Part shown: positions 27,162-42,260 of the stretch, one piece after another | Position numbering within the stretch: the first letter of the stretch is position 1 | How the letters are laid out: each line of letters begins with the position of its first letter | Assembly (NCBI GenBank): GCA_030390025.1 | Contig: CM059432.1 | Location: forward strand, 46,626,001 to 46,690,000 | Source: Squalus acanthias | Lineage: Eukaryota | DNA length: 64,000 nt | Reading direction: 5' to 3' | Position numbers and translations under genes: made by a program | The notes under the pieces: model-generated | Told to the model about the DNA's origin: nothing | Seen by the model: only the letters and a program-made list of their open reading frames with translations | Database searches by the model: none

Positions 27162-30100
27162 AGTGTGTCGCATGCTTATATGTCAAAAAGTACCAACAAT
27201 GAACACCAACTGCAGGGTTAACAGAAAGGGATGTTTCGAAGATCTAACTCTTCTGCTTGTGCATCGTATTCACTGTAATGCCCTGAAAGCCCCTGTTTCA
27301 TCTATTTATTTGCCTGCAAGCAAAGAAAAATCTGAAAACAAAACAGTGTGGTTACATTCCAACTGAACATCCAACATCATCATGCCCACCTAAGGATAAG
27401 GCAGACGAACCTTACATTGCCAAATAATGAGGACAAATGAGGTAAAGCTTGAGAATCATGTATATTACCTCCCTTTGCTGATTCAGTAGAGAAGTTATGA
27501 ATTACTTTTAGTTCCCACTCCACTCTATGTAAGGTTTTTTGCATCCAACGGCACTTCCAGAATATGTTCGGCTGTCATCTGGATTTATGTATTGCTTGTG
27601 TTACCTGATGTTGAATGTACCTTTCAAAGAGCAGTTGTGTGAGGACATGCCAAGTATTTGACAACCACCTAAATCAGATCTGGCTGCATATTGCTGTTGG
27701 ATTCCAACATAAAAGCAGATTATCGTCAGCCATTTTATTTGGCAACTTGAAAAATATTTGAATCTTTCTCTCTGTTATGATAGTTTTCGATGTGGTGACG
27801 ACTGTTTCTATGAAGTTATAGTTTCATCCAAATATAGTTAGAAGCACTGCCCACTATGATATCAGCCATCATACGACTATAAACAAAATTAATATGGGGA
27901 TGACTTGGCGTTTGAAGAATTTTCATTCATATTATTATGCCAATAATTTTGCTTATGTGCACAGTGTAACATTGCTTATTATATCTGAAAGAAATGACTG
28001 TCAGAAAATAGCTTAGTGCTAAAATGCATCGAACTGTCCACAGGATGACACTGGGCCTTTAAAACTGTGCAACATTTTCATTGCAACGAAGCTGGCTTTC
28101 GTTAACTTAATTTACTACTCGACATACTTCAGTAACGGTCTTGATTGTGCAACATCTGCTGCTTGGCCTTTTTAGTCACAGAATGTTACACAGCTGTGAT
28201 TTTTTTATTTAACTGTTCAACAAGGAAAATAGCAATACAAAACCAAGCCCAGATTAACACTCTTAGTGCTCTAGTTGACTTTAATGTTTATTTGTTCAGA
28301 ATTAGATGCATTCCTGGCCAGTATACCACAAGAAACAACACTTAAGGGTAGATTTTTCAAGTCCTCATCTGCAATATTCCAATATACATTGTCATGGGCA
28401 AAGTATCTTACCATGGGCGAGTGAGTCTTCACTTTAGTCACCTCTGGATCAGCAAGAATCAGTGGTATCCCTCCATTAGATCAGCAGGAAAACAAATCTT
28501 ACTTGTGCCCACCAGATTTTGTAGAATTGGGGTACATATTTGATTTAGCAGGACTACCACCCACCACAAGCATGCGTTCCTGATTCCAACTGATTATCCA
28601 GCCTCAGGGTAATTACCATAATTATGCTGGGCTCCCCAGCCTCTGAGTTCATCTAGAAGGGGCATGGAATATTGCTGTAGCAAGGCTTGGATGCCTATCA
28701 CAGTGTTGTGTCGCCAGTTGCCACTGTGGTAGCTGAGGATGTTGGCCAATTTTTTTTTTTAAGTTAATACGATCAATTGCTTTGGCTTTTAGGCCATTTA
28801 AACTTTAAGAGGAACTTAGTTACACAGAGAGTTGTGAGGATGTGGAATTCACTTCCAGGGTTCGTGCTTGAGACAGAAACTATGGACGGAATTTTCTGTA
28901 CCTGGGTGGGTCGAGTGCGGGCGGTCGCCGAGGCGGGTCGTTCTTCATTCCTTCCCGCTCCAGAGATCGACTTTCCGTTAATGATGCCTATTAAGGCAGC
29001 CCTGCGCATTACCCGGCCCTATTAAATGGTGCAGGTCTGATGACGTCATCGATAATGCGTTTTCAGCCAGGATATTTAAAGGAGCCATGGCCACATTGCA
29101 TTTGAAGGTTCACCTAGGATAGTGCAGGCACTGCACTGCACCATTGGAGTGTTGCAAAGAGTGGCAAATATGGTTGCACAGAAACAGAGGGCTGCACACA
29201 GGTTCTCAGATGACTCCCTCCATATGCTTGTTGAGGGAGTGAGAACATGCAGGGAGGTCCTCTTCCATTCCTATGGGCGGAAGAGACCTCACCAGGAGAC
29301 CAAAGGAGCCTGGCTCCAATTAGCTGAGGAGGTCAACAGTGGGGATGCTGTCAGGAGGACCTGGGTGCAGTGCTGCAAACGTTTCAATGATCTCATTAGA
29401 TCAGGAAAGGTGAGTGCAAAGCCACACTCAACTTCATCCTGCTGTGCCCCTCATCACATCCCCATCACTCTGCCCTCCCAACTCTACTCCTGCACATCCT
29501 TACTCACACCAACATACCTTGCAGGTCCACCCATTTCTCTCTATCTACATTATCACATCCCCATCTGACTAGCCACCCCTCACACTCACCCTCATCCTAA
29601 TGCAATCATACCAACTAATATCACACAAGGAGGCCACTTGGCATTGCCACCACACTCCTTCTTAGTCACCCTCTAAAGATGTAACCCATATATTCCTTAC
29701 GTTCAAGCCATCACTCTAACTCAACCGTTGCTTCTTTCCCTCCTTGCCGGAAAAGGGAGCCCACAATAAGAGGGAGAGGGAGAGAACCGGAGGTGGCCCT
29801 TCATCATTGACCTACTTAACAGCAGCAGAGGAGGTTGCATTGGAAGTGTCTGGAGTCACCGAGCAGCTGAAGGTTGGAGAGGGAGAGAGGGGGACATCTC
29901 AGCAACTTGGTGACAGAATTTCATCTCATACAGCCACATACAGCAGTCACTCATATGGGAACTGATGTCAGCAGCCAGTGAATGTTTATCATGTGCTTAA
30001 TGGTATCTGTACCCATTCTTGATATGACATGTCTAACTTATCTCTTTACTCTCCCACAGGTCCATCAAGAGCCCTCCCCACTCCATCCCCACTGTCCAGG

Positions 30101-30502
30101 AGGAAGAGGAAGACGACTCCTCAGAGGAGCCTCCAGCCTCTGAGAGCGCACCGTCACCAGATGGAAGCACACCCAGCACCAGCGCAGATAGCCACATCTT
30201 GGTGGATGCCATGTGAGATATAGTGTTGTCAACTGATGTCTCACAACTCACAAGTGAGCAAGAGCAGATGGTGGAGACAGGGACAGCACTGGAGGCACCT
30301 CGCGGAGGCTCCGCCCAGGAAGCTCCCAGCTCTGCCCAGCTGCATGCAGACGCTGAGCCTCGGGGACCATCTAGAAAGAGGGCGATCCTGGAGGTGCAGC
30401 AAGAAGTGCAGGAGGCATTGACAGGTTTTGCAACTGCGATGTCTGCAAATGTGCAGAGAATGGAGGAGTCCATCTGCAACATGAGCACCACTGTGTCGCA
30501 GT

Positions 30503-30853
30503 TGTAAGACGTGCGGAAATTGCCCCTTGCCCCGTCAAACAGTTTCCAAAGTTCAGCCCCGTCGAAAACACAACACAAAACCCAATGGGCTGGATTTTGA
30601 TACTGGGGCAGGTTGGGGTCGTGTCATCCGCATTTCCTGTTATCCACCCACCTGCAATTGGATGTGGGAGATTGATGCAATTTTCACTTAATTGGGCAAT
30701 TGAGTTCCAGCATGTGGAAACCCATGACCCAATTAGTGGTTTCAGTCTGAAAGTCACCTCTGATGATGTCATCATTGCAGGTCAGAGACTGCCTGGTCTC
30801 AGAGATTGCCTGGCCTTTGCTGTGAGAGGACCTGGATGCCAAATGAGCAGCAT

Positions 30854-30891
<38 letters not shown>

Positions 30892-31955
30892 TTGCAACCA
30901 AGTCCTCCCAGGCAGTCTCTGAAGACATTCAATGCAGCAGCATCAGAGGCGACTTTCAGAACTAATACTACTACTACCTTCATCACAATACTACTACTAT
31001 CTTCATCACATCTCCATTGTAATAGTGGACCTGCAGCTGATAGTCAGCTATCCACTTGTGCTCCCGCCAGGTTTCACTGGCGTGTTTCACATCAGGCGTA
31101 CTTCACGTCGGAAAAGGGTTAAACTAGCTAAAACGTTTCAAAATGGCATTACAGAGCCAATTTGGGGCTTGTTAAGGGCTTTAATGGCCTGTCCCGCCTC
31201 TTGGAGGCGGGACGGAGTCGGGAACCCCGCGACCAATTTTGTCAAAAATTGCGTGGAGGCGGAATGGAGTCGGGATGGGGGTCGGGATCCCCGAATCTGC
31301 AACTTTAACCCCCCACACGCCTCCAAACCCGACTCCACGGGTCATTGAAAATCCAGCCCAATGAATCTGTGAAACTTCTTTTACTCAGCAAGAGATTACA
31401 AGTAAGCATTCGACAGTTATGTAGCATATAATAATTTCCAATTATACCTCAGTATACACAGAGCTATCCCTTTGCTTTAAGCTCAAGCAAACCACATACG
31501 TACCAACACCAGCGAGTGTTCAATCCGACAGTGACTAGACGTATGATTTCTGGCAACTGACCAGGTCGCCCGGCTGCAGCCCCGAGTGGTCAATTTACAG
31601 CATCTTTTATACCCCAAAACTTGGCAACCCTCCCACTGCGTACGTGTCCCTAACTATACGGCATTAGTTGTTTTTCAGTTACCCTTATCAATAGTCCATT
31701 AACCATCCGTGCGCTTCAAGGCCGGTTACATTCCATAGTCTGAAGATGTTTCTGTTTTTGCACTGATTCCACCGAATTTTCAAAGATTGTTTTCCTTATC
31801 TGTTGAAAAACAATTGGCAGCTTTCACAGCCTACAACCACAGCATCTTATTTTGCAAAGTTCTCACAGCAACCAGCCTTTTGTCCTCACGAAGCATGATG
31901 ATAAATAAAATGTGATCAACTTTTAAGTTTGGTACAGCAAATAGTGTGTTCTACA
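30503..31955 (-). mobile_element. 3' LTR of the retrovirus-like element (~680 bp after removing the MITE)
   Basis: On -: PPT-like GAGGGTGGAC (31965-31956), then TGTAGAAC...GTCTTACA; TATAAAA at 31611-31605; AGTAAA at 31385-31380. Confidence 0.78.
30587..31359. mobile_element. Harbinger-type MITE inserted in the LTR
   Basis: TIRs GGGCTGGATTTT / AAAATCCAGCCC, 3-bp TSD AAT; contains (GA)n and (TAC)n tracts. Confidence 0.88.
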
Positions 31956-32002
31956 GTCCACCCTCAAGTGGCTGTGCACCCGAATCTTTGAGTCACAGGC
32001 AC

Positions 32003-35000
32003 TTACAACTTGTAGGCGTCATCGTTGTCTTCTTCCTTCGGCGTCTTCTGCAACAGCTTAACCCATTCTTGTTGCTTGCGTCTCCTGTTGACTCGACAAG
32101 TTATGATTAGTAAATATAACACAATCACCAACTAAACAATGACCAAAACATGGGAGATAAATCTTATCCAGGGATGAACCTCGATACTCATACCGATATC
32201 CCACCAGGATGAATCATCCCCGACCTTAAGGATTGCTTTACGCAGTTCATGATTTTTCTGGGCCAGGGTATAAAAGTGCTTTTGGGACTGACTAACGCGT
32301 CCCATTAACTCTACCAAGTGTTCTGACAGAGGTAGAAAGTCATAGCCGAATCGAGTTACATACTGGTGTAATTGCTCTTTTAACTCATCTTCTACAGCGA
32401 TATCTACTCGCCTGTGCGAATATATGCTTAATAAAACCCGCACCCCAAGTCTTACAGGTTGGACTGGGGTAAAGCAAAAAGTTCCTGCCGCAACAGGACA
32501 AGTCAGGTTGTTAACGTGCTGGTATTCCCGGTGTATGGTGGTGACACAATATTCACCCTTCCCTTGATACGCAGATCGTACGGGGAAATGCTGTCCCGCC
32601 ATCACTTTCATGGTGCAGTTCCATTCTATCCCATCCCAATCAAACCCACACACAGGGGCTGCCTGTTCTACCACGTCGTAAGGGCAGATGAATGTGTCCC
32701 GAGCTTGTGCGCACCCGGTAAGATCTGGGGCTACCCATGTGGTCCCATCCACTTGGGTCACGTACTTCGGGGGTTGGTCATACCTTATTAAGTGATCTCT
32801 CTGACATACTCCTATGTTCTCCACGTGGAACAGAGGGTTTGGGGTCACCTTTTCGGGCAGAATGGGATAATACAATACCATTCTGAACAGGATGATGTTG
32901 TTTTGTTCCTGCAAATGGCATTCATGTTCACTGGGTACACCTGTACCAACCCCCTGACTTTACACATATTCATGGTAAATTGGTAAATGGACATTGCCCT
33001 CAGGTGTCGATCAGTCACCCACGAGGGAAGCTTCACCTCAGCAATGCACTGCAGGTTTTCACGGGCTTGTTCCACTAACCAAGATCCATACATTACACTA
33101 GAGGCATTCCGATCTTCCTTTAAAATTTGGTTTATCTTTTTAGCATGGGATTCTAAATGTTTAACCACATCCTGCAGATGAATGGTCATAAATTGGTCCT
33201 CTTCCAATTCCTCCTGTTTTAGACCATTCATTTTATTCAAAATTTCCCTTAAAAGATTTCTAACCGCCTTTACGGATTGATCCAAATTAGCCAAATCAAG
33301 GCTATTAACCAGGGAGGTTCCAGTATTAACAACAATAGCTGCATCATTTATCAGACCCCATCGCCTTCTGATATGGTACCCTTTAATCCTGTAACCAACA
33401 TCATTTTCTTCAATGATCTCGGTACTATTTTCCCAAAGTCATCGTTGAATTCATCACCATCCCCTGTGCCCTATATAACGGCTGAGCGATATAATGGCTC
33501 TAATTCCGAGTCTGCCAATGTTGTGCTGGCGGTCTCCCAAAATCCCTCTATTAATTCCCGCATCATCCTCCCATATAACTGCGCTGCCTCTGGTTTGCAC
33601 CAGGTCAGCAGTCCCACCTCAGTCAGATTCAATATTACCGGCACCACCTCGTGATGCACATCACGATACAATATCATCCGAGTTGGGATCAGCACCAACC
33701 CATTTGTCAGTCTCGGGGTGTGTTTAGGGCAAGTGACCTGGGTTGTATGTTGTCCTTCCCAGGATTGTGTTTTATTCATAGGGGGAGGGGTTTTTGGTCG
33801 AACTTTTAATTCTACTGCATGTATAACCGCACTTCCGTCACCACATCCCGTTACGTGATAGGTGCTAATACCGGTATCGTTGCTATACCATTGATAGAGT
33901 TCCTTGGTCCTATGGTGGGCAAACATCGTACAACTGGTCACATCCCTTTCAATCAAAGACAAGCCATCCGAATCATCCGACTGGAACCTGTCTGTCACCC
34001 CACTTGGGCTCAAACATCCGTAAACTCCCTCATGAACTTTCCACCATTGGGGCCAACATAACAGGGTGTCTCCCACTGCTCGGGATTGGGTTGGGCTTCC
34101 TACATTTCCCCGAGGGTTCCCTATCTGATAGTACCTTGAATGGTCACTTGGTTCTGCTTGTAAAATCCACACCTGTGGCCCGGTGGGGCGATCTTTGCAT
34201 TTTATGAATACCCTCCCTAACTTCCTGGACCTCATAAGTGGTAACCCACACTGTCCCTGAACACGCGGTTTTATAGAAACAAAGAAGATAGGAGCAGGAG
34301 TAGGCCATTCGGCCCCTCGAGCCTGCTCCGCCATTCAATGCGATCATGGCTGATCATCCAAATTCAGTACCCTGTCCCTGCTTTCTCCCCATATCCCTTG
34401 ATCCCCTTAGCCTTAAGAAATATATCTAACTCCTTCTTGAATATATTTAATGAATTGGCCTCAACTGTCTTCTGTGGAAGAAAATACCACAGGTTCACCA
34501 CTCTCTGGGTGAAGAAATTCCTCCTCATCTCAGTCCTAAATGGCTTACCCCTTATCCTTAGACTGTGACCCCTGGTTCTGGACTCCCCCACCATCAGGAA
34601 CATCCTTCCTGCATCTAGTTTGTCTCGTCCTGTTAGAATTTTATAAGTTTCAATGAGATCCCCTCTCATTCTTCTAAACTCTAGCGAATACAAGCCCAAT
34701 CGACCCAATCTCTCTTCATACGTCATTCCTGCCATCCCAGGTATCAGTCTGGTGAATCTTCGCTGCACTCCCTCCATGGCAAGAACATCCTTCCTCAGAT
34801 AAGGCGACCAAATCTGCACACAATACTCAAGGTGTGGTCTCACCAAAGCCCTGTACAACTGCAGCAAGACTTCTTTGCTCCTGTACTCGAATCCTCTCGC
34901 TATGAAGGCCAACATACTATTTGCCTTCTTAACCGCCTGCTGCACCTGCATGCTTCCCTTCAGCGACTGGTGCACAAGGACACCCAGGTCTCGTTGCACT

Positions 35001-36863
35001 TCCCCTTTTCCCAATCTATTGCCGTTCAGATAATAATCTGCCTTCCTGTTTTTGCCACCAAAGTGGATAACCTCGCATTTATCCACATTATACTGCATCT
35101 GCCATGCATCTGCCCAATCACCCAACCTGTCCAAATCATACTGGAGTTTCTCTGCATCTTCCTCACAGCACACATGCCCACCCAGCTTTGTGTCATCTGC
35201 AAACTTGGAGATATTACATCTAGTTCCCTCGTCTAGATCATTAATATATATTGTGAATAACTGGGGTCCTAGCACCGATCCCTGCGGTACCCCACTAGTC
35301 ACTGCCTGCCACTCGGAAAAAGACCTGTTTATTCCAACTCTTTGCTTCCTGTCTGCCAACCAGTTTTCTATCCAAGTCAGTACCTTACCCCCAATCCCAT
35401 GTGCTTTAACTTTGCACGCTAATCTCTTATGCGGGACCTTATCGAAAGCCTTCTGAAAGTCCAAATACACCACATCCACTGGTTCTCCCTTATCTATTCT
35501 ATCAGTTACATCCTCAAAAAATTCCAGTAGATTAGGCAAGCATGATTTACCTTTTGTAAATCCATTTGACTTTGTCTAATCCTGTCACTGTTTTCCAAGT
35601 GCTCTGCTATTACATCTTTGATAATGGACTCTAGCATTTTCCCCACTACCGATGTCAGGCTTACCGGTCTATAATTCCCCGTTTTCTCTCTACCACCTTT
35701 TTTAAATAGTGGGGTTACATTAGCCACCCTCCAATCCATGGGAACTGTTCCAGAATCTATAGAATTTTGGAAGATGACCAGCAATGCATCTACTATTTCT
35801 TGGGCCACTTCCTTAAGTACCCTAGAATGTAGATTATCGGGCCCTGGGGATTTATCGGCCTTCAATCCCGTCAATTTCCCTAACACCATTTCCCTACAAA
35901 TACTGATTTCATTCAGTTCCTCCCTCTCATTAGACCCTATGTTCCCCGACATCTCTGGGAGGTTATTTGTGTCCTCCTTTGTGAAGACAGAACCAAAGAA
36001 TGTATTTAATTGGTCTGCCATTTCTTTGTTCCCCATTATAAATTCCCCTGATTCTGACTGCAAGGGACCTACGCTTGACTTCACCAATCTTTTTCTCTTC
36101 TAATATCAATAAAAGCTTTTACAGTCAGTTTTTATGTTCTCTGAAAGCTTACTCTCGTACTCTATTTCCCCCCTCTTAATTAATCCCTTGTCCTCCTTTG
36201 CTGAATCCTAAACTGCTCCCAATCCTCAGGTTTTCTGCTTTTTCTGACCAATTTATATGTCCTCTCCTTGGATCTTTTGCTATCACTAATTTCCCTTGTT
36301 TGCCACGGTTGAGTCACCTTTTTGTTTTATTTTTATGACAAGCAGGGATGAACAAATTCTGTAGTTCATCCATGTGATCTTTAAATGTTTGCCATTGCCT
36401 ATCCACCGTCAACCCTTTAAGTAATGTTCTCCAATCCATCCGAGCCAACTCGCGCCTCATACCATCATAGTTTCCTTTATTTAAATTCAGGACCCTAGTC
36501 TCTGAGTCAACTGCTTCACTCTCCATCTTAATGAAGAATTCTATCATATTATGATCGCTCCTCCCCAAGGGGCCTCTACAAGATTGCTAATTAATCCTTT
36601 CTCATTACATAATACCCAGTCTAAGATGGCCTGATCTCTCGTTGGTTCCTCGACATATTGGTCCAGGAAACCATCCTGCAATCACCCTTGATGTACTGGA
36701 TGGTAATGTTTCGAGTGGCATCCCGGTGTGGTGTCTCCGGGGCAACTGTAATCGAACTATTATAGGGAAAATAGTTAGCGTTGATCCAGTATGCCGAATA
36801 GGCTGACGTAGAATCTTCGAGATAGCGCAGAATCCCGATCATTGGCCAGAATAATTCTTTCAT
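32003..36863 (-). pseudogene. env: env-like glycoprotein (~820 codons) with F-type class I fusion architecture; stops, frameshifts and a CR1 insertion
   Basis: Splice acceptor at 36881, then MKELFWPMIGIL signal-like start; IRRRW|GLINDAAIVVNTGTSLVNSLDL at ~33370-33290; heptad repeat; Cys-rich region; second heptad; TM FISHVLVIV*LVIVLYLLIITC; basic tail RVNRRRK. Confidence 0.8.
34275..36672 (-). mobile_element. CR1 LINE (endonuclease end + RT + tail) inserted in env
   Basis: ORFs 36087-35506 and 35539-34364 (YLDFQKAFDKV, SGVPQGSVLGP, FADDTK), SDHNMI endonuclease motif; env reads KGDCR|IKPRVQ across the junction (shared AT). Confidence 0.95.
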
Positions 36864-37035
36864 TTTATATATCTTCTTGCCTGTGGGGATAAGGGACAAA
36901 AACATAGTATTACTCCCGGCCTTGCACCCTACGGACACCCATTAGTTCAGGCTTTCATTACTAATGTATTTTTTTTAAACAAAACAAAAGGGGGCTTCCT
37001 ACATTTCTTTTTCTGCACTGGGCAATTTTCGACTC

Positions 37036-38086
37036 CTACCACTGGTGATACTTCAAGGGTGTCTTTTTATTTCTTTTACTACGCTGCCGTGGGGTAGGAG
37101 GGGTCTGTTGGATTCGTCTGCGGACAGGAGGTGGTTCCGGTCCTGGAGACGAGGAGGTTTCTACAGTTCCCATGTCCTGTCCACCTTCATTTGAATCATA
37201 CTGTACCTGTGGAGATGCCATTTCAGGCAAGGGCACCTCATTGGGTGGGGGTGTCCCCTTAGGCACCCCTGCTTCATCATCCCACTGGAGAGGATAAATC
37301 CTGTTCACCATGCTCATAATCATAGCTTGCTGTCTTCTGGACCTGCTAGTGGGCTGAAAAAGCTTCATCTGGTTAATATGAAACCACTTCATTTTCTTAG
37401 GTAACTGAACCACATACACCATGGGACTAGCTTTATCAACAATGCTATACGGCCCCTTGTAGAGGGGTTCAAAGACTCCCATCCTCGCATAGTTTCGTAC
37501 CATTACCTGGCTCCATACTTCCCATTCCTGGGGTTTACTGGGAGTCAGGTGTATTTGGTTGCGTTGGTGAACCTTCCCAATGTTGTAGGCGGCCCTCAAG
37601 TTCAGTTCTTTTAAAGTTCCCCACAGGTCGCTCAGGAATTTGTCCCGAGTCACCTCTTTAACTTGTTTATCAGTCAGAGTGGGGACTAACAGGTGTGTGG
37701 GGGTTCGCATGGGTCTCCCCGTTACCAATTCATGAGGGGAGTGACCCGTTCCTTTGGATCTGTTGCTACGTATCCCCATGAGGATTAGTGGAAGTACCTC
37801 ATCCCACTTAGTGTGCTGTTCATTTAATTCCTTTACGCAGAGCCAATTTTAATGTACGGTTCATTCTTTCCACAATCCCCGATGATTGTGGGTTGTGGGT
37901 CACGTGCCATTTCCCTTCAATTCCAAGCAATTTCAGAATGGCTTGCATTACCTGACCTGTGAAATGACTTTGTTGGTCTGACTCTACCATGCGAGGAAGT
38001 CCCCATCTGGAGAATACCTCTTTAACTAGGGTCTTGGCTGTCCACAATGCTGTGGCCGACTTGCACGGGAAGGCTTCTACCCACCT
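37036..38086 (-). pseudogene. pol: Retroviral-type integrase, core and C-terminus (pol 3' end), frameshifted
   Basis: RWVEAFP, FSRWGLPRMVESDQQSHF, HNPQSSGIVERMNRTLK, TGHSPHELVTGR, YKGPY, WFHINQMK. Confidence 0.92.
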
Positions 38087-38617
38087 GGCAATCGTGCACC
38101 ATCAACACTCATCTGCCCCCTGCTTAAAAGAAAAAACAGACAATCCATTGTGGCTTTCCTACGAGCCCAATGGGCTAATTCGTCAATTCCTGATTCCCTT
38201 CTGTCACTGTGGGGAAACATCCACTCAAATTAAAAACCTTAAATTTAATAATGTCCAATATCTTTAAATTTCATTTCAGCAATAAAAAGTTGTTGTGTGG
38301 TGAATTCAAAAAAAACAGCTGTCAGCGGAAAGGGTTAACTCCTTTGCAGGTTTGTAAGAAGACGGAGCAAATTGTCAGACGCACGCAATTGCATCACTTC
38401 ACGTAAATTTAAAAAAAACTTTCCCGATCGAAAAAGACAGAGTTTTAAAGGCACAAAGATTTTGCAAAAGTAACAGATTTTTTTTATTGACGAGTTTTAA
38501 ATTTACTTGAAAGCTGCGAGAAGCTGTGTGACACAAGCCGACATTGACTGATGGCATCTGGGTTTGTCTTCTTTTGGAAAAAAAAGTTAACTAACCTATT
38601 CAATTGTGAAAAACGGA

Positions 38618-38778
38618 GTGTTACTCCCAGCCTTGCACCCTACGTACACCCATTAGTTCAGGCTCTCAATACTGAAGTATTTTTTTTTTTAAACATAACA
38701 AAATGGGGCTTCCTACTTTTCTTTTTCCTGCATTGGGCAATTTTCTCAATCCTACCACTGGTGATACTTCAAGGGTGT
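38618..38778. repeat. Diverged direct duplicate of the pol-end/env-acceptor spacer (36907-37061)
   Basis: GCCTTGCACCCTACG..CACCCATTAGTTCAGGC...CCTACCACTGGTGATACTTCAAGGGTGT occurs twice. Confidence 0.88.
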
Positions 38779-39614
38779 ATGGCGACTGTAGGTTCTTCCA
38801 TGGATAGGATAGCCACCAGCATGGAGCAGCTAATGTGCCACTCACAGGAGCACATGGTCTCTATGGAGAATAGATGGCAGACGCTCATAGATCGCCTCTC
38901 TAGGAGGGATGTCAATGTAGACGAGGGTCCTCAAGGCCCCACTGCTGTGCAGCAAGGTGCTCTCCAGCTCTTTGCTAGCAGGGAAGTGCGGGCTGGCCCA
39001 TGAGAGGGCTGATGGTGAGATGGGACATGGAAATGGGGGCTCCTCTCAGAGCGCTCACACTTCTCCTCCATTGCCCCCCCCCCTCAGTCAGAACCCCAGG
39101 TGGCTCCTCGGATCGCGATAGCCGAGTCTGCCCCTGCACAGTCGCAGGAGGAGCAGACTTTGGCGGGGCCATCACAACCTCCAAAACCCAGAGGACGTCT
39201 GCCAAAAGTGTCTACGCAGTCACAGCAGGGAAATGAGCAGGCTGCCTCTACCTCTGCTGAAGCCACAGGGGTAGCACCTCGTAGAAGCACGCGTAAGAGA
39301 AAGATGAAACACAAGTAGATGCACAAGGGTAGCCACTTGGGTGTATTAATAAATGTTTGTGTAAAGTTTCCATTACTCTTATGTCACAGATAAAAATATT
39401 TATTTTTGCCACTTTGCAATCATGGACTAATTGTGTGCAACTTTGGAAGTGACTTAGTGAGTTGGAGTGAATGGTGAGACATAACGTTACCTCCAGCAAT
39501 GGTGGTCAGTGTGAAAGGAATGACTTGGTCATTGTAGGGATGCTTTATGGTGTTGCTGTGGAGTGGTGCGAACCTGGCGCAGCATGTGGCAGCATATGGG
39601 TGTAATGCGTGAAG

Positions 39615-42260
39615 TTAAGTAAATCTGGCCATGATGAGGCCATCCCTGGCCTCCCGGGCAGCAATGAGCTCGGGTGCTGGTGGGATCTGGACCGCAGCTT
39701 CCTCCTGCTCCTCCTCCTCCTCGTCTTCCAGCTGATGCTCCTTCTCCTCCTCCTGCTTCTCCTCCTCTGAAGAGGTCGTGCGCTCAGTGCCTTGCTCCTC
39801 ATGCAGCGCTAATCCTCGCTGCTGCATTATGTTGTGCAGGGCGCTGCAGACCACAACGATACTGGAGACCTTGGCTGGTGCGTACTGAAGGGCTCCTCCA
39901 GATCTGTCAAGGCATCTGAAGCGCAGTTTCAGCATGCCTATTGTCTGCTCTATGACACATCTGGTGGAAATGTGGCTTTCATTATATCTCTCCTCGGCCT
40001 CAGTACTTGGCCTCCTCAAGGGTGTCATGAGCCACGTCTTCAGTGGATAGCCCTTGTCTCCAAACAGCTAGCCGGAAAGTCTGTTTGGAGAAGCAACGAG
40101 CTGAGGGAGGGTGGTCTGGTGCAGGACGAAAGAGTCATGGCAGCTGCCAAGGAATTTGGCACACACATGCATAATAACATAAGAACATAAGAAATAGGAG
40201 CAGGAGTAGGCCAATCGGCCCCTCGAGCCTGCTCCGCCATTCAATAAAATCATGGCTGATCTGATCCTAACCGCCAATCTACTATCTATCACAGAACCAT
40301 CTCCTGCATCTAACAGAATTGCACACACGAAATAGGAGCAGAATCAGGCTACACGGTCCCTGGGCCCGCTCCACTACCCACAGGGCCATGACCGATCCGA
40401 ACCTAGACTCATGTCCAAATTCCTGCCCGCTCCCCGTAACCCTTAATGCCCTTTACTTCTAGGAAACTGTCTATTTCTGTTTTAAATTTATTTAATGATG
40501 TAGCTTCTACAGCTTTTTGTGGCAGCATATTCCATGGACCTACCACCCTCTGAGTGAAGTAGTTCCTCCTCATCTCAGTTTTGAAAGAGCAGCCCCTTAT
40601 TCTAAGACTATGTCCCCTAGTTCTAGTCTCACCCGTCATCGGGAACATCCTCCCCGCATCCACCTGATCCAACCCCTTCACAATCTTATATGTTTCAATA
40701 AGATCGCCTCTCATTCTTCTGAACTCCAATGAGTAGAGTCCCAATCTACCCAACCTCTCCTCATATGACCACCCCCTCATCCCCGGGATTAACCGAGTGA
40801 ACCTTTTTTGCACTGCCTCGAGAGCAAGGATGTCTTTCCTTAAGTAAGGACACCAAAACTGTATGCAGTATTCCAGGTGCGGTCTTACCAATACCTTGTA
40901 CAACTGAAGCAATACCTCCCTATTTTTATATTCTATCCCCCTAGCAATGAAAGCCAACATTCCATTTGCCTTCTTAATCACTTGCTGCACCTGCATACTA
41001 ACCTTTTGAGTTTCGTGCACCAGGGCCCCCAGATCCCTTTGCACTTCAGTACTCTCCAGTTTCTTGCCATTAAGATAATAAATTGCTCTATGATTTTTCC
41101 TGCTAAAGTGCATCACCTCACACTTTCCAGTATTGTATTCCATCTGCCAAATCTCTGCCCACTTACTTAGCCTGTCTATGTCCCCTTGCAGGTTTTTTAT
41201 GTCCTCCTCACTCACTACTTTCCCTCCCATCTTTGTATCATCTGCAAATTTTGATATGTTACACTTGGTCCCTTCCTCCAAATCGTTAATATAGATTGTA
41301 AAGAGTTGGGGACCCAGCACTGACCCCTGTGGAACACCACTAGTTACTGATTGCCAGTCTGAGAATGAACCATTTATCCCAACTCTTTGCTTTCTGTTAG
41401 ATAGCCAATCCTCTATCCATGCCAGAATATTACCCCCAATCCCGTGATTTTTTACCTTAAGCAATAATCTTTTGTGTGGCACCTTGTCAAATGCCTTTTG
41501 GAAGTCTAAATACACTACGTCCACTGGTTCCCCTTTATCCACTCTATATGTTACTTCCTCAAAGAACTGATCTTACTATGGTTGCAGACGAGCTGCACAT
41601 TGAGGGAGTGGAAGCCCTTGCGGTTGACAAAAACTCCTGAATGATGATGGGGTGCCCTGATGGCCACATGGGTGCAGTCGATGATGCCTGCACCCATGGG
41701 AAGCCAGCCAGCGCGGCAAAGGCCAGTGCCCGCTCAGTAACACTGGCTTCATCAGTGGCAAAGTTGATATAATTGGCTGACTTGTCAAAGAGGGCATTGG
41801 TGACCTGTGTGATGCATCTGTGGGCGGCTGACTGTGAGATGCCGCAAATGTCTGCTGCAGATCCCTGGAAGGAGCCTGAGGCAAAGAAGTTGAGGGCACT
41901 GGTGACTTTGACAGCCACTGGTAAGGCATATCCACCTGCTCCTCTGGGTTGCAGATCTTGCTCCAGCAATCTGCAAATGTCTGCGACGACCTGGCGCAAT
42001 AGCCTGAGCCTCCTTTGGCACTGCTGCTCTGTCATGTTGAGGAAGCTCATCCTCTGCCTGTATACCCTGTGTTGGGGGAATCGCCTCCGGCGCGGTGCAG
42101 CCCTGCGCTGATGCCCTGTGTCCTGTGCAGCATCAGGTGATTGCGAAGAAGGTTGGTGGTGTTGTTGTTGGTACTGCTGGCGTGCCTAGTGCTGCTGGTG
42201 TTGGGGCTCATCGTGGTCTGATTCTGAGGACCAAGGTGAGACAGTATAAATGGCACCTAT
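39615..42260 (-). pseudogene. Harbinger DDE transposase (HARBI1-family), split by a CR1
   Basis: [90 protein letters not shown]; frameshift and stops. Confidence 0.93.
40176..41568 (-). mobile_element. 5'-truncated CR1 LINE with uninterrupted RT ORF (41542-40409) and duplicated 3' tail
   Basis: FADDTK RT; transposase reads HSKI|IMHV across the insertion. Confidence 0.95.

Follow-up and report, generated by a model that had tools for sequence, protein, structure and literature searches.

A window of 64,000 nucleotides of the Squalus acanthias genome (GCA_030390025.1, contig CM059432.1, positions 46,626,001 to 46,690,000) was analyzed; "the window" means this whole stretch, and positions are counted from its first letter. 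It holds, on the reverse strand, the remains of an endogenous retrovirus (ERV) whose envelope protein (Env) is predicted to fold like the F proteins of paramyxoviruses. An earlier inspection of the letters, hereafter the sequence-only reading, had described an env gene of about 820 codons between integrase (IN) and the polypurine tract (PPT) and long terminal repeat (LTR). We count 818 codons once an inserted CR1 element is removed, and the gene is disrupted at six places, by this CR1, three frame changes and two stops (Table 1); of these the sequence-only reading had named the CR1 only. The two subunits, put at about 370 and 450 aa, come to about 367 and 451 codons in the window copy; from the cleavage position to the end of the transmembrane (TM) helix there are 429 aa. 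The string IRRRW was located at the cleavage position and GLINDAAIVVNTGTSLVNSLDL begins at 33357, immediately after it. A furin-type R-X-[KR]-R site stands at this position in 11 of the 21 readable copies (30 loci; 3 spurious motif matches removed). The quoted cysteine motifs, heptads, TM helix (Kyte-Doolittle 3.0 across 19 aa) and following basic tail are all present. A CX6CC motif, reported as missing, was not found when the open frame of copy L032, 586 aa long, was inspected.

Table 1. Features of the provirus and its host transposon in the window
Feature	Position	Strand	Remarks
env gene	32003..36863	-	ATG at 36863, TAA 32003-32005; 2455 nt once CR1 excised
env frame changes	near 34250, 33450, 32960	-	
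env stops	33471-33473; 32132-32134	-	second in frame within TM helix
CR1 long interspersed nuclear element, 5'-truncated, within env	34272..36677	-	RVT_1 E 2e-22; edges set by CR1-free copies
Putative signal-peptide-like start	36800..36863	-	weakly hydrophobic here; matching start in copies L044, L047
Candidate immunoglobulin (Ig)-like N-terminal domain, candidate receptor-binding module	33795..34226	-	low-confidence model
Swappable variable segment	33826..34015	-	at least 3 unalignable types among copies, discordant with flanks
Predicted F2-like core, two strands and a helix	33500..33731	-	model residues 45-112 align to F2 of NDV, PIV5 and hMPV F
Cleavage-site position	33358..33372	-	IRRRW in window copy
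F1-like subunit	32006..33357	-	predicted fusion peptide, heptad A, Cys-rich domains, heptad B, TM helix, short tail
PPT-like stretch	about 31957..31966	-	directly before LTR; read from sequence
3' LTR (TG...CA)	30503..31955	-	split by unrelated insertion 30588-31356
Integrase remnant	37036..38101	-	core and C-terminal domain, one frame change, no zinc finger; rve E 6e-8
Non-coding filler, marker of pol-deleted subfamily	38102..38440	-	
Rearranged 5' end	38437..38778		inverted piece 38437-38612; duplicate of 36898-37062 at 38609-38778
Harbinger-like DNA transposon hosting the provirus, left part	29080..30502	+	Myb_DNA-bind_5 and DDE_Tnp_4 matches; resumes at 38779

Fold of the envelope protein and selection on its gene

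The Env fold was predicted with AlphaFold from the natural 586-aa frame of copy L032 and 38 aligned rows (pLDDT 70, pTM 0.49). With Foldseek against the PDB, paramyxovirus and pneumovirus F proteins were the only matches among those listed, the best being F of human parainfluenza virus 3 (hPIV3; E 3e-11). With VIA-align, ranks 1-16 were all F proteins or foamy virus Env, from Z 11.7 (root-mean-square deviation, rmsd, 19.2 over 362 aligned residues) down to 6.2, and coiled coils ranked lower (Z at most 5.7). The model aligned to human metapneumovirus (hMPV) F with Z 9.3 (rmsd 6.0, 290 aligned) and to foamy Env with Z 8.3 and 8.2; residues 45-480 of this predicted model align across F2 and F1 and domains I-III. 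A viral structure library added lispi-, filo- and baculovirus F and the Envs of walleye retroviruses, i.e. the predicted Env of walleye epidermal hyperplasia virus 1 (rank 21, E 4e-9) and that of walleye dermal sarcoma virus (WDSV; rank 39, E 4e-6), and the models suggest that epsilonretrovirus Env may also be F-type. SnRV Env was not among the best 50 viral-library matches listed. Sequence searches of Pfam and the PDB with Env pieces or the Env profile returned no F or Env match. On these models the Env of the window family is predicted to be a class Ib (F-type) fusogen, which bears out the F-protein type proposed in the sequence-only reading.

With the paramyxovirus and pneumovirus F proteins (hPIV3 1ztm; respiratory syncytial virus 3rki; Newcastle disease virus, NDV, 3maw) the shark Env shares predicted domains I-III, the F2/F1 split and heptads A and B. 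It differs from them by an identity of 7-15% and an N-terminal domain, F proteins having no fused receptor-binding domain and belonging to an unrelated virus order. Foamy Env (8rm0, 8rm1), as described in PMC11468914, has likewise a class Ib fold, a C-terminal subunit of about 430-450 aa and a receptor-binding module on the F scaffold; there the module lies between the subunits, i.e. between F2 core and furin site, whereas the candidate shark module is N-terminal and precedes the F2 core. The same paper describes such an N-terminal arrangement for the coronavirus spike. The long, F1-like TM subunit had been taken for the layout of paramyxovirus F and of lokiretrovirus (loki) Env: its F-type character holds, and its specificity for loki does not, since foamy Env has such a subunit (PMC11468914) and SnRV Env aligns to the same profile.

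The N-terminal subunit, which had been left without a family, likely comprises a signal peptide, an Ig-like domain that includes a swappable segment, and a core resembling F2. As the structural alignment begins at residue 45, upstream of the cleavage site, the model identifies the final ~110 aa of this subunit as the F2-like core (F2 of NDV, parainfluenza virus 5 (PIV5) and hMPV). The domain upstream of it has a conserved C...W...G-x-Y-x-C pattern. Its model has a pLDDT of 38, and the best 50 VIA-align matches all bear the titles of Ig-domain chains (Z 5.5-6.1, with some 85 residues aligned at an rmsd of about 3); in an Atlas search with the corresponding region of family C (see below), Ig led at 0.82-0.84. 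With fair confidence we take the modelled domain to be Ig-like. Copies 92% identical just upstream of the variable segment bear another type of it, and copies 77-80% identical share one, a pattern that points to recombinational swapping of a putative receptor-contact loop.

If the fold is as modelled, a trimeric Env precursor would be cut by furin, the N-terminal domain would bind a receptor, the F2-like core would remain in the fusion machine, and heptads A and B would form a six-helix bundle on refolding, like those of paramyxovirus F.

Selection was measured by counting non-CpG variants in 518 codon columns of the fusion core at 30 loci. Variants shared by at least 3 copies gave an omega of 0.20 (116 synonymous, 79 non-synonymous) and private variants one of 0.77 (160 synonymous, 427 non-synonymous; Fisher test of shared vs private, p 1e-15). 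A similar contrast appears in the N-half of the Ig-like domain (0.16 shared vs 0.95 private). The counts show that env was under purifying selection as the family diversified, when Env would have been functional, and the copies decayed after insertion. The locus in the window is dead and shows no sign of serving the host.

A pol-deleted subfamily in a large family

At least 140 matches to the C-terminal Env frame were found in the 3.7-Gb S. acanthias genome, and as all 140 scored had E<=1e-70, this env is not a product of chance. Copies were studied at 17 env matches, as 10-kb stretches, and at 16 loci chosen by reverse transcriptase (RT). RT, RNase H and a primer-binding site (PBS), which the sequence-only reading had proposed to recover by a genome search, are present in other copies. 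The window copy belongs to family A, whose pol-bearing copies encode a CCHC Gag, PR, RT, tether, RNase H, HHCC-IN and Env. The PBS, seen in six loci of this family, is complementary to the host tRNA-Lys(TTT); LTR pairs of family A are 90-97% identical in six loci. As the anatomy of these copies shows, the family layout is LTR, tRNA-Lys(UUU) PBS, gag, pro-RT-tether-RNase H-IN, env, PPT, LTR. Long tandem arrays with a period of about 1.78 kb, which contain the tRNA-Lys(TTT) 3' motif, were also met in this genome (273 matches).

Among the 12 family A loci chosen by env, 11 have no RT within the fetched stretch. The non-coding filler (compared over 38111-38435) is complete in 7 of these 11 and partial in 2, and was not found in any of the 13 RT-bearing loci save for one 26-nt match. 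Since the filler is kept in RT-less loci and missing from RT-bearing ones, the window copy is shown to be a member of a pol-deleted subfamily with a shared internal deletion. The family would have spread by reinfection, and the pol-deleted subfamily would have been copied in trans by helper proviruses.

Neither RT, PBS, gag nor 5' LTR was found within the 64-kb window. Its LTR matches both LTRs of copy L036 (blastn) at 85-86% in 31357-31930 and at 86-87% in 30503-30587. The two flanks of the Harbinger-like transposon lie at most about 3 nt apart in four of five other copies of this transposon and at most 8 nt apart in the fifth, whose alignment begins late. The window provirus inserted into this transposon; the loss of its 5' end, with 5' LTR, PBS and gag, and the gain of the CR1 came afterwards. 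The nested Harbinger-like DNA transposons occupy 29080-30502 and 38779-42185, and a second CR1 lies at about 40170-41572.

Two other families were distinguished in this genome. Family B (L039-L043) has an Env 44-46% identical, and in both RT and IN it clusters with a Xenopus Pol, apart from A and C. Family C (L089-L092) has an RT about 69% identical, a different PBS and many copies with long open pol frames. Family C is younger, its LTR pairs being 97.3-99.7% identical in the three copies checked. Its gag and pol form one frame with a single TGA between them, consistent with gag-pol read-through.

Among 44 matches to Env, of which 22 were looked up, the named relatives belong to Pristiophorus, Rhinoraja, Chiloscyllium, Mustelus, Heptranchias, Heterodontus and Scyliorhinus, with best stretches mostly 27-52% identical and one 23%. 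The closest named relatives are those of sharks and a skate; these homologues make an elasmobranch host very likely, in keeping with the shark genome suspected from the letters. Frog and coelacanth relatives are about 20-30% identical and are distinct from the published loki Envs of the same hosts. A word-based homologue search returned three proteins with the family C Env region and none with the Env alignment. In the homologous Envs P0005, P0011, P0014, P0028, P0034 and P0047 the N-terminal modules differ or are absent, P0028 having a weak V-set match (E 0.045). Env pieces are also joined to predicted shark host proteins (P0016, Niban-like; P0019, cadherin-like; P0022, F-box-like), fusions which are likely annotation artefacts.

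Placement of the family and rival explanations

Phylogenetic placement used natural sequences as reference rows. The foamy, gamma, epsilon and delta reference genomes were labelled in part by the RT rows of the PMC7947760 supplement; L095, whose RT matches the SnRV row of that supplement, stands for SnRV, and three loki-type contigs found by motif (L096-L098) stand for the lokiretroviruses. The RT tree covers 45 rows, leaving aside ERV-L, CmiERV and fish foamy-like ERVs. Loki comes out as sister to all other retroviruses (100/99), in agreement with its published placement, and foamy rows form a separate branch (100/100). The shark rows fall within the canonical retroviruses (100/99), outside foamy, gamma/epsilon and Gypsy; Pols of frogs, of coelacanth and of unnamed origin join them in a weakly supported group (85/79). 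Grouping shark RT with loki was rejected by the approximately unbiased (AU) test (p=0.0007). The shark RT is 38-44% identical to SnRV, as against 31-34% for loki and 29-37% for the remaining named references, and has the motif LPQGF of canonical retroviruses where loki has RCPFG. The exact loki RT motif had no match in the S. acanthias genome nor in the viral contig collection; motif flags labelled "LOKI" were false matches within Gypsy proteins.

The IN tree holds 31 rows (13 of 44 were removed as long, partial or redundant; CGIN1 was left aside). The window's own IN groups with those of the pol-bearing family A copies (100/99). Contrary to one alternative raised in the sequence-only reading, it lies outside Gypsy, and the TM subunit is not gamma-type. 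A Ty3/Gypsy errantivirus was rejected on the placement of both RT and IN (100/99 separation), and a gamma-type Env on the missing CX6CC, the long TM subunit and the negative score of murine leukaemia virus (MLV) Env. The loki IN stands beside frog and coelacanth "NYNRIN-like" Pols (P0070, P0071 vs L096, L097; 93/95), whose RT is canonical-retroviral; judged from these sequences, the loki/CGIN1-type IN may have come from this group of Pols.

Scores of the remaining domains differ in direction. The IN prefers loki (249-251 bits, the best among named references) over SnRV (130-136), as does the tether (81 vs 36), and a family A stretch across RT and tether also scores higher on loki; RNase H prefers SnRV (39 vs 29), and its tree, where long branches meet, gave no firm placement. 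A dual RNase H (tether and RH) is present in the pol-bearing copies, a feature common to all retroviruses and not diagnostic. The Env profile reached at most 13 bits on foamy, 8 on WDSV and below 0 on MLV (maximum of 100 shuffles, 2.2), and profiles of shark Envs only gave 25-33 bits on loki and 4-8 on SnRV. HHalign gave 98% over 348 columns with loki and 94.5% over 281 collinear columns with SnRV. Global Env identity is 17-18% to both, and in the Env tree the shark Envs form their own branch, the loki/SnRV order (69/88) being affected by long branches that meet. The SnRV Env (L095:6131-9535) aligns with the F2/F1-like core, has three cysteines in common with the shark Env and, by eye, an Ig-like motif near its N-terminus. 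We read this score pattern as probably reflecting shared retention of old features together with a fast-evolving SnRV.

SnRV and the class III SnRV-like ERVs of clade Huo (PMC4422223; PMC6001957) are the best named RT match. They resemble the shark family in their single-frame gag-stop-pol, a CCHC Gag with an N-terminal coiled coil and a long TM subunit, and differ in Env (18% identical; 818 aa in shark, about 1130 in SnRV; short tail in the shark copy) and in the tRNA-Lys PBS of family A. Downstream of env, no accessory ORFs were seen in the window; SnRV has accessory ORFs and spliced transcripts. The elephant-shark CmiERV lineage I clusters with SnRV, and SnRV-like ERVs are known from cartilaginous fish (PMC4422223). 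The sequence-only reading had proposed a possibly undescribed cartilaginous-fish lineage; we take the family to be a new variant within an already known clade.

We hold with good confidence that the window locus is a dead, pol-deleted ERV of a large, likely elasmobranch family, with a canonical RT likely in the neighbourhood of SnRV and clade Huo, and an Env predicted to be class Ib and likely Ig-like at its N-terminus. Several results weigh against this reading. The RT was taken from other copies, the window copy having none. SnRV stands at an open fork of the RT tree, so that its sister relation to the shark rows is no more than possible, and the AU test of the weak group joined with SnRV did not reject it (p=0.41); RT grouping with foamy was not rejected either (p=0.065). 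For IN, grouping with SnRV was rejected (AU p=0.011) and grouping with loki was not (p=0.077). Env comparisons favour loki over SnRV, both pairwise (23 vs 0 bits) and with the profile (59-60 vs 17). Pfam Fusion_gly (PF00523) is matched by no shark Env, whereas the loki control matches it (E 0.002). The Ig call relies on the pLDDT 38 model, with a Z of about 6 that is below the trust level of the tool; when the N-terminal piece of the window copy was compared with the Atlas, all leads were lectin-like and under 0.9, and they were rejected as noise.

The main rival is an ancient recombinant, with gag and RT of the canonical, Huo type and IN and env from a loki-like donor. It would explain the discordant AU results of RT and IN, the preference of the Env profile for loki and the position of the loki IN amid the INs of the aquatic group, next to frog and coelacanth Pols; domain swapping is common among retroviruses according to PMC7947760. 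We consider it unlikely, because the tether, upstream of RNase H, is loki-like and RNase H slightly SnRV-like, so that a single crossover is insufficient, the shark Env is not nested in loki and has the three cysteines and (by eye) the N-terminal Ig-like extension in common with SnRV, and the long branch of SnRV is enough by itself to depress SnRV scores.

That the family is a true lokiretrovirus lineage of cartilaginous fish, as the sequence-only reading had it, is highly improbable. Its Env, IN and tether do match loki best among the named references, Env with the HHalign score given above. According to PMC7947760 and PMC9040795, lokiretroviruses also have an Env related to F and equipped with signal peptide, RXKR-type site, fusion peptide, heptads and TM, as well as a dual RNase H, a similar IN and tether, and gag-TGA-pol. 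This account is contradicted by the RT, which lies inside the canonical retroviruses with their LPQGF motif, by an Env that forms its own clade and is no more identical to loki than to SnRV, and by the extra N-terminal Env domain, absent from two loki Envs. The exact loki RT motif is missing from the S. acanthias genome, and PMC7947760 reports loki in 0 of 6 chondrichthyan genomes. We give equally little credence to the view that this is a cartilaginous-fish ERV of the foamy-like clade Tu. The F-like fold of foamy Env (PMC11468914; Z values above), a study of foamy ERVs in cartilaginous fish which that paper cites, and the RT grouping which the AU test did not reject speak for it, but foamy rows separate at 100/100, in a tree built without fish foamy-like ERVs, and the extra domain precedes the F2 core instead of lying between it and the furin site. 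Foamy viruses further differ in RT, Gag and gene layout: their Gag has no Cys-His box and their Pol lies in its own frame, whereas the shark Gag has a CCHC knuckle and gag-stop-pol is in one frame.

The envelope in retroviral evolution

In our literature search, which left most subscription papers outside its scope, no paper was found that describes an F-type Env for SnRV or for SnRV-like ERVs. PMC11468914 assigns orthoretroviral Env to class Ia and foamy Env alone to class Ib, the Env survey of bioRxiv 2021.11.23.469661 includes gamma- and beta-type Envs only, and PMC9040795 favours independent env acquisition by loki and canonical retroviruses, whose Envs "did not share detectable similarities". 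In the shark family, a retrovirus neither foamy nor loki, Env detectably resembles loki Env in sequence and is predicted to adopt an F fold; SnRV Env weakly follows. Since the shark RT falls among ordinary retroviruses, this suggests that the F-type envelope may have a greater age and a wider distribution among retroviruses than published schemes allow for.

One possibility, which we advance tentatively and with some doubt, is that the F-type (class Ib) Env was the ancestral Env of all retroviruses, kept by the aquatic clade, loki, foamy viruses, SnRV and possibly the walleye epsilonretroviruses. If so, the aquatic clade (sharks, skates and, likely, coelacanth and frogs) would also retain the ancestral integrase and tether, gamma- and beta-type Envs would be later replacements, and the preferred model of independent env gain by loki and canonical retroviruses would be overturned. 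An F scaffold with a swappable N-terminal Ig-like receptor-binding domain would then be a retroviral parallel to the coronavirus spike. With such an Env outside foamy and loki, a structure-guided tree can put the source of retroviral Env to the test, and Env surveys seeded with gamma- and beta-type sequences would miss a large class in cartilaginous fish.

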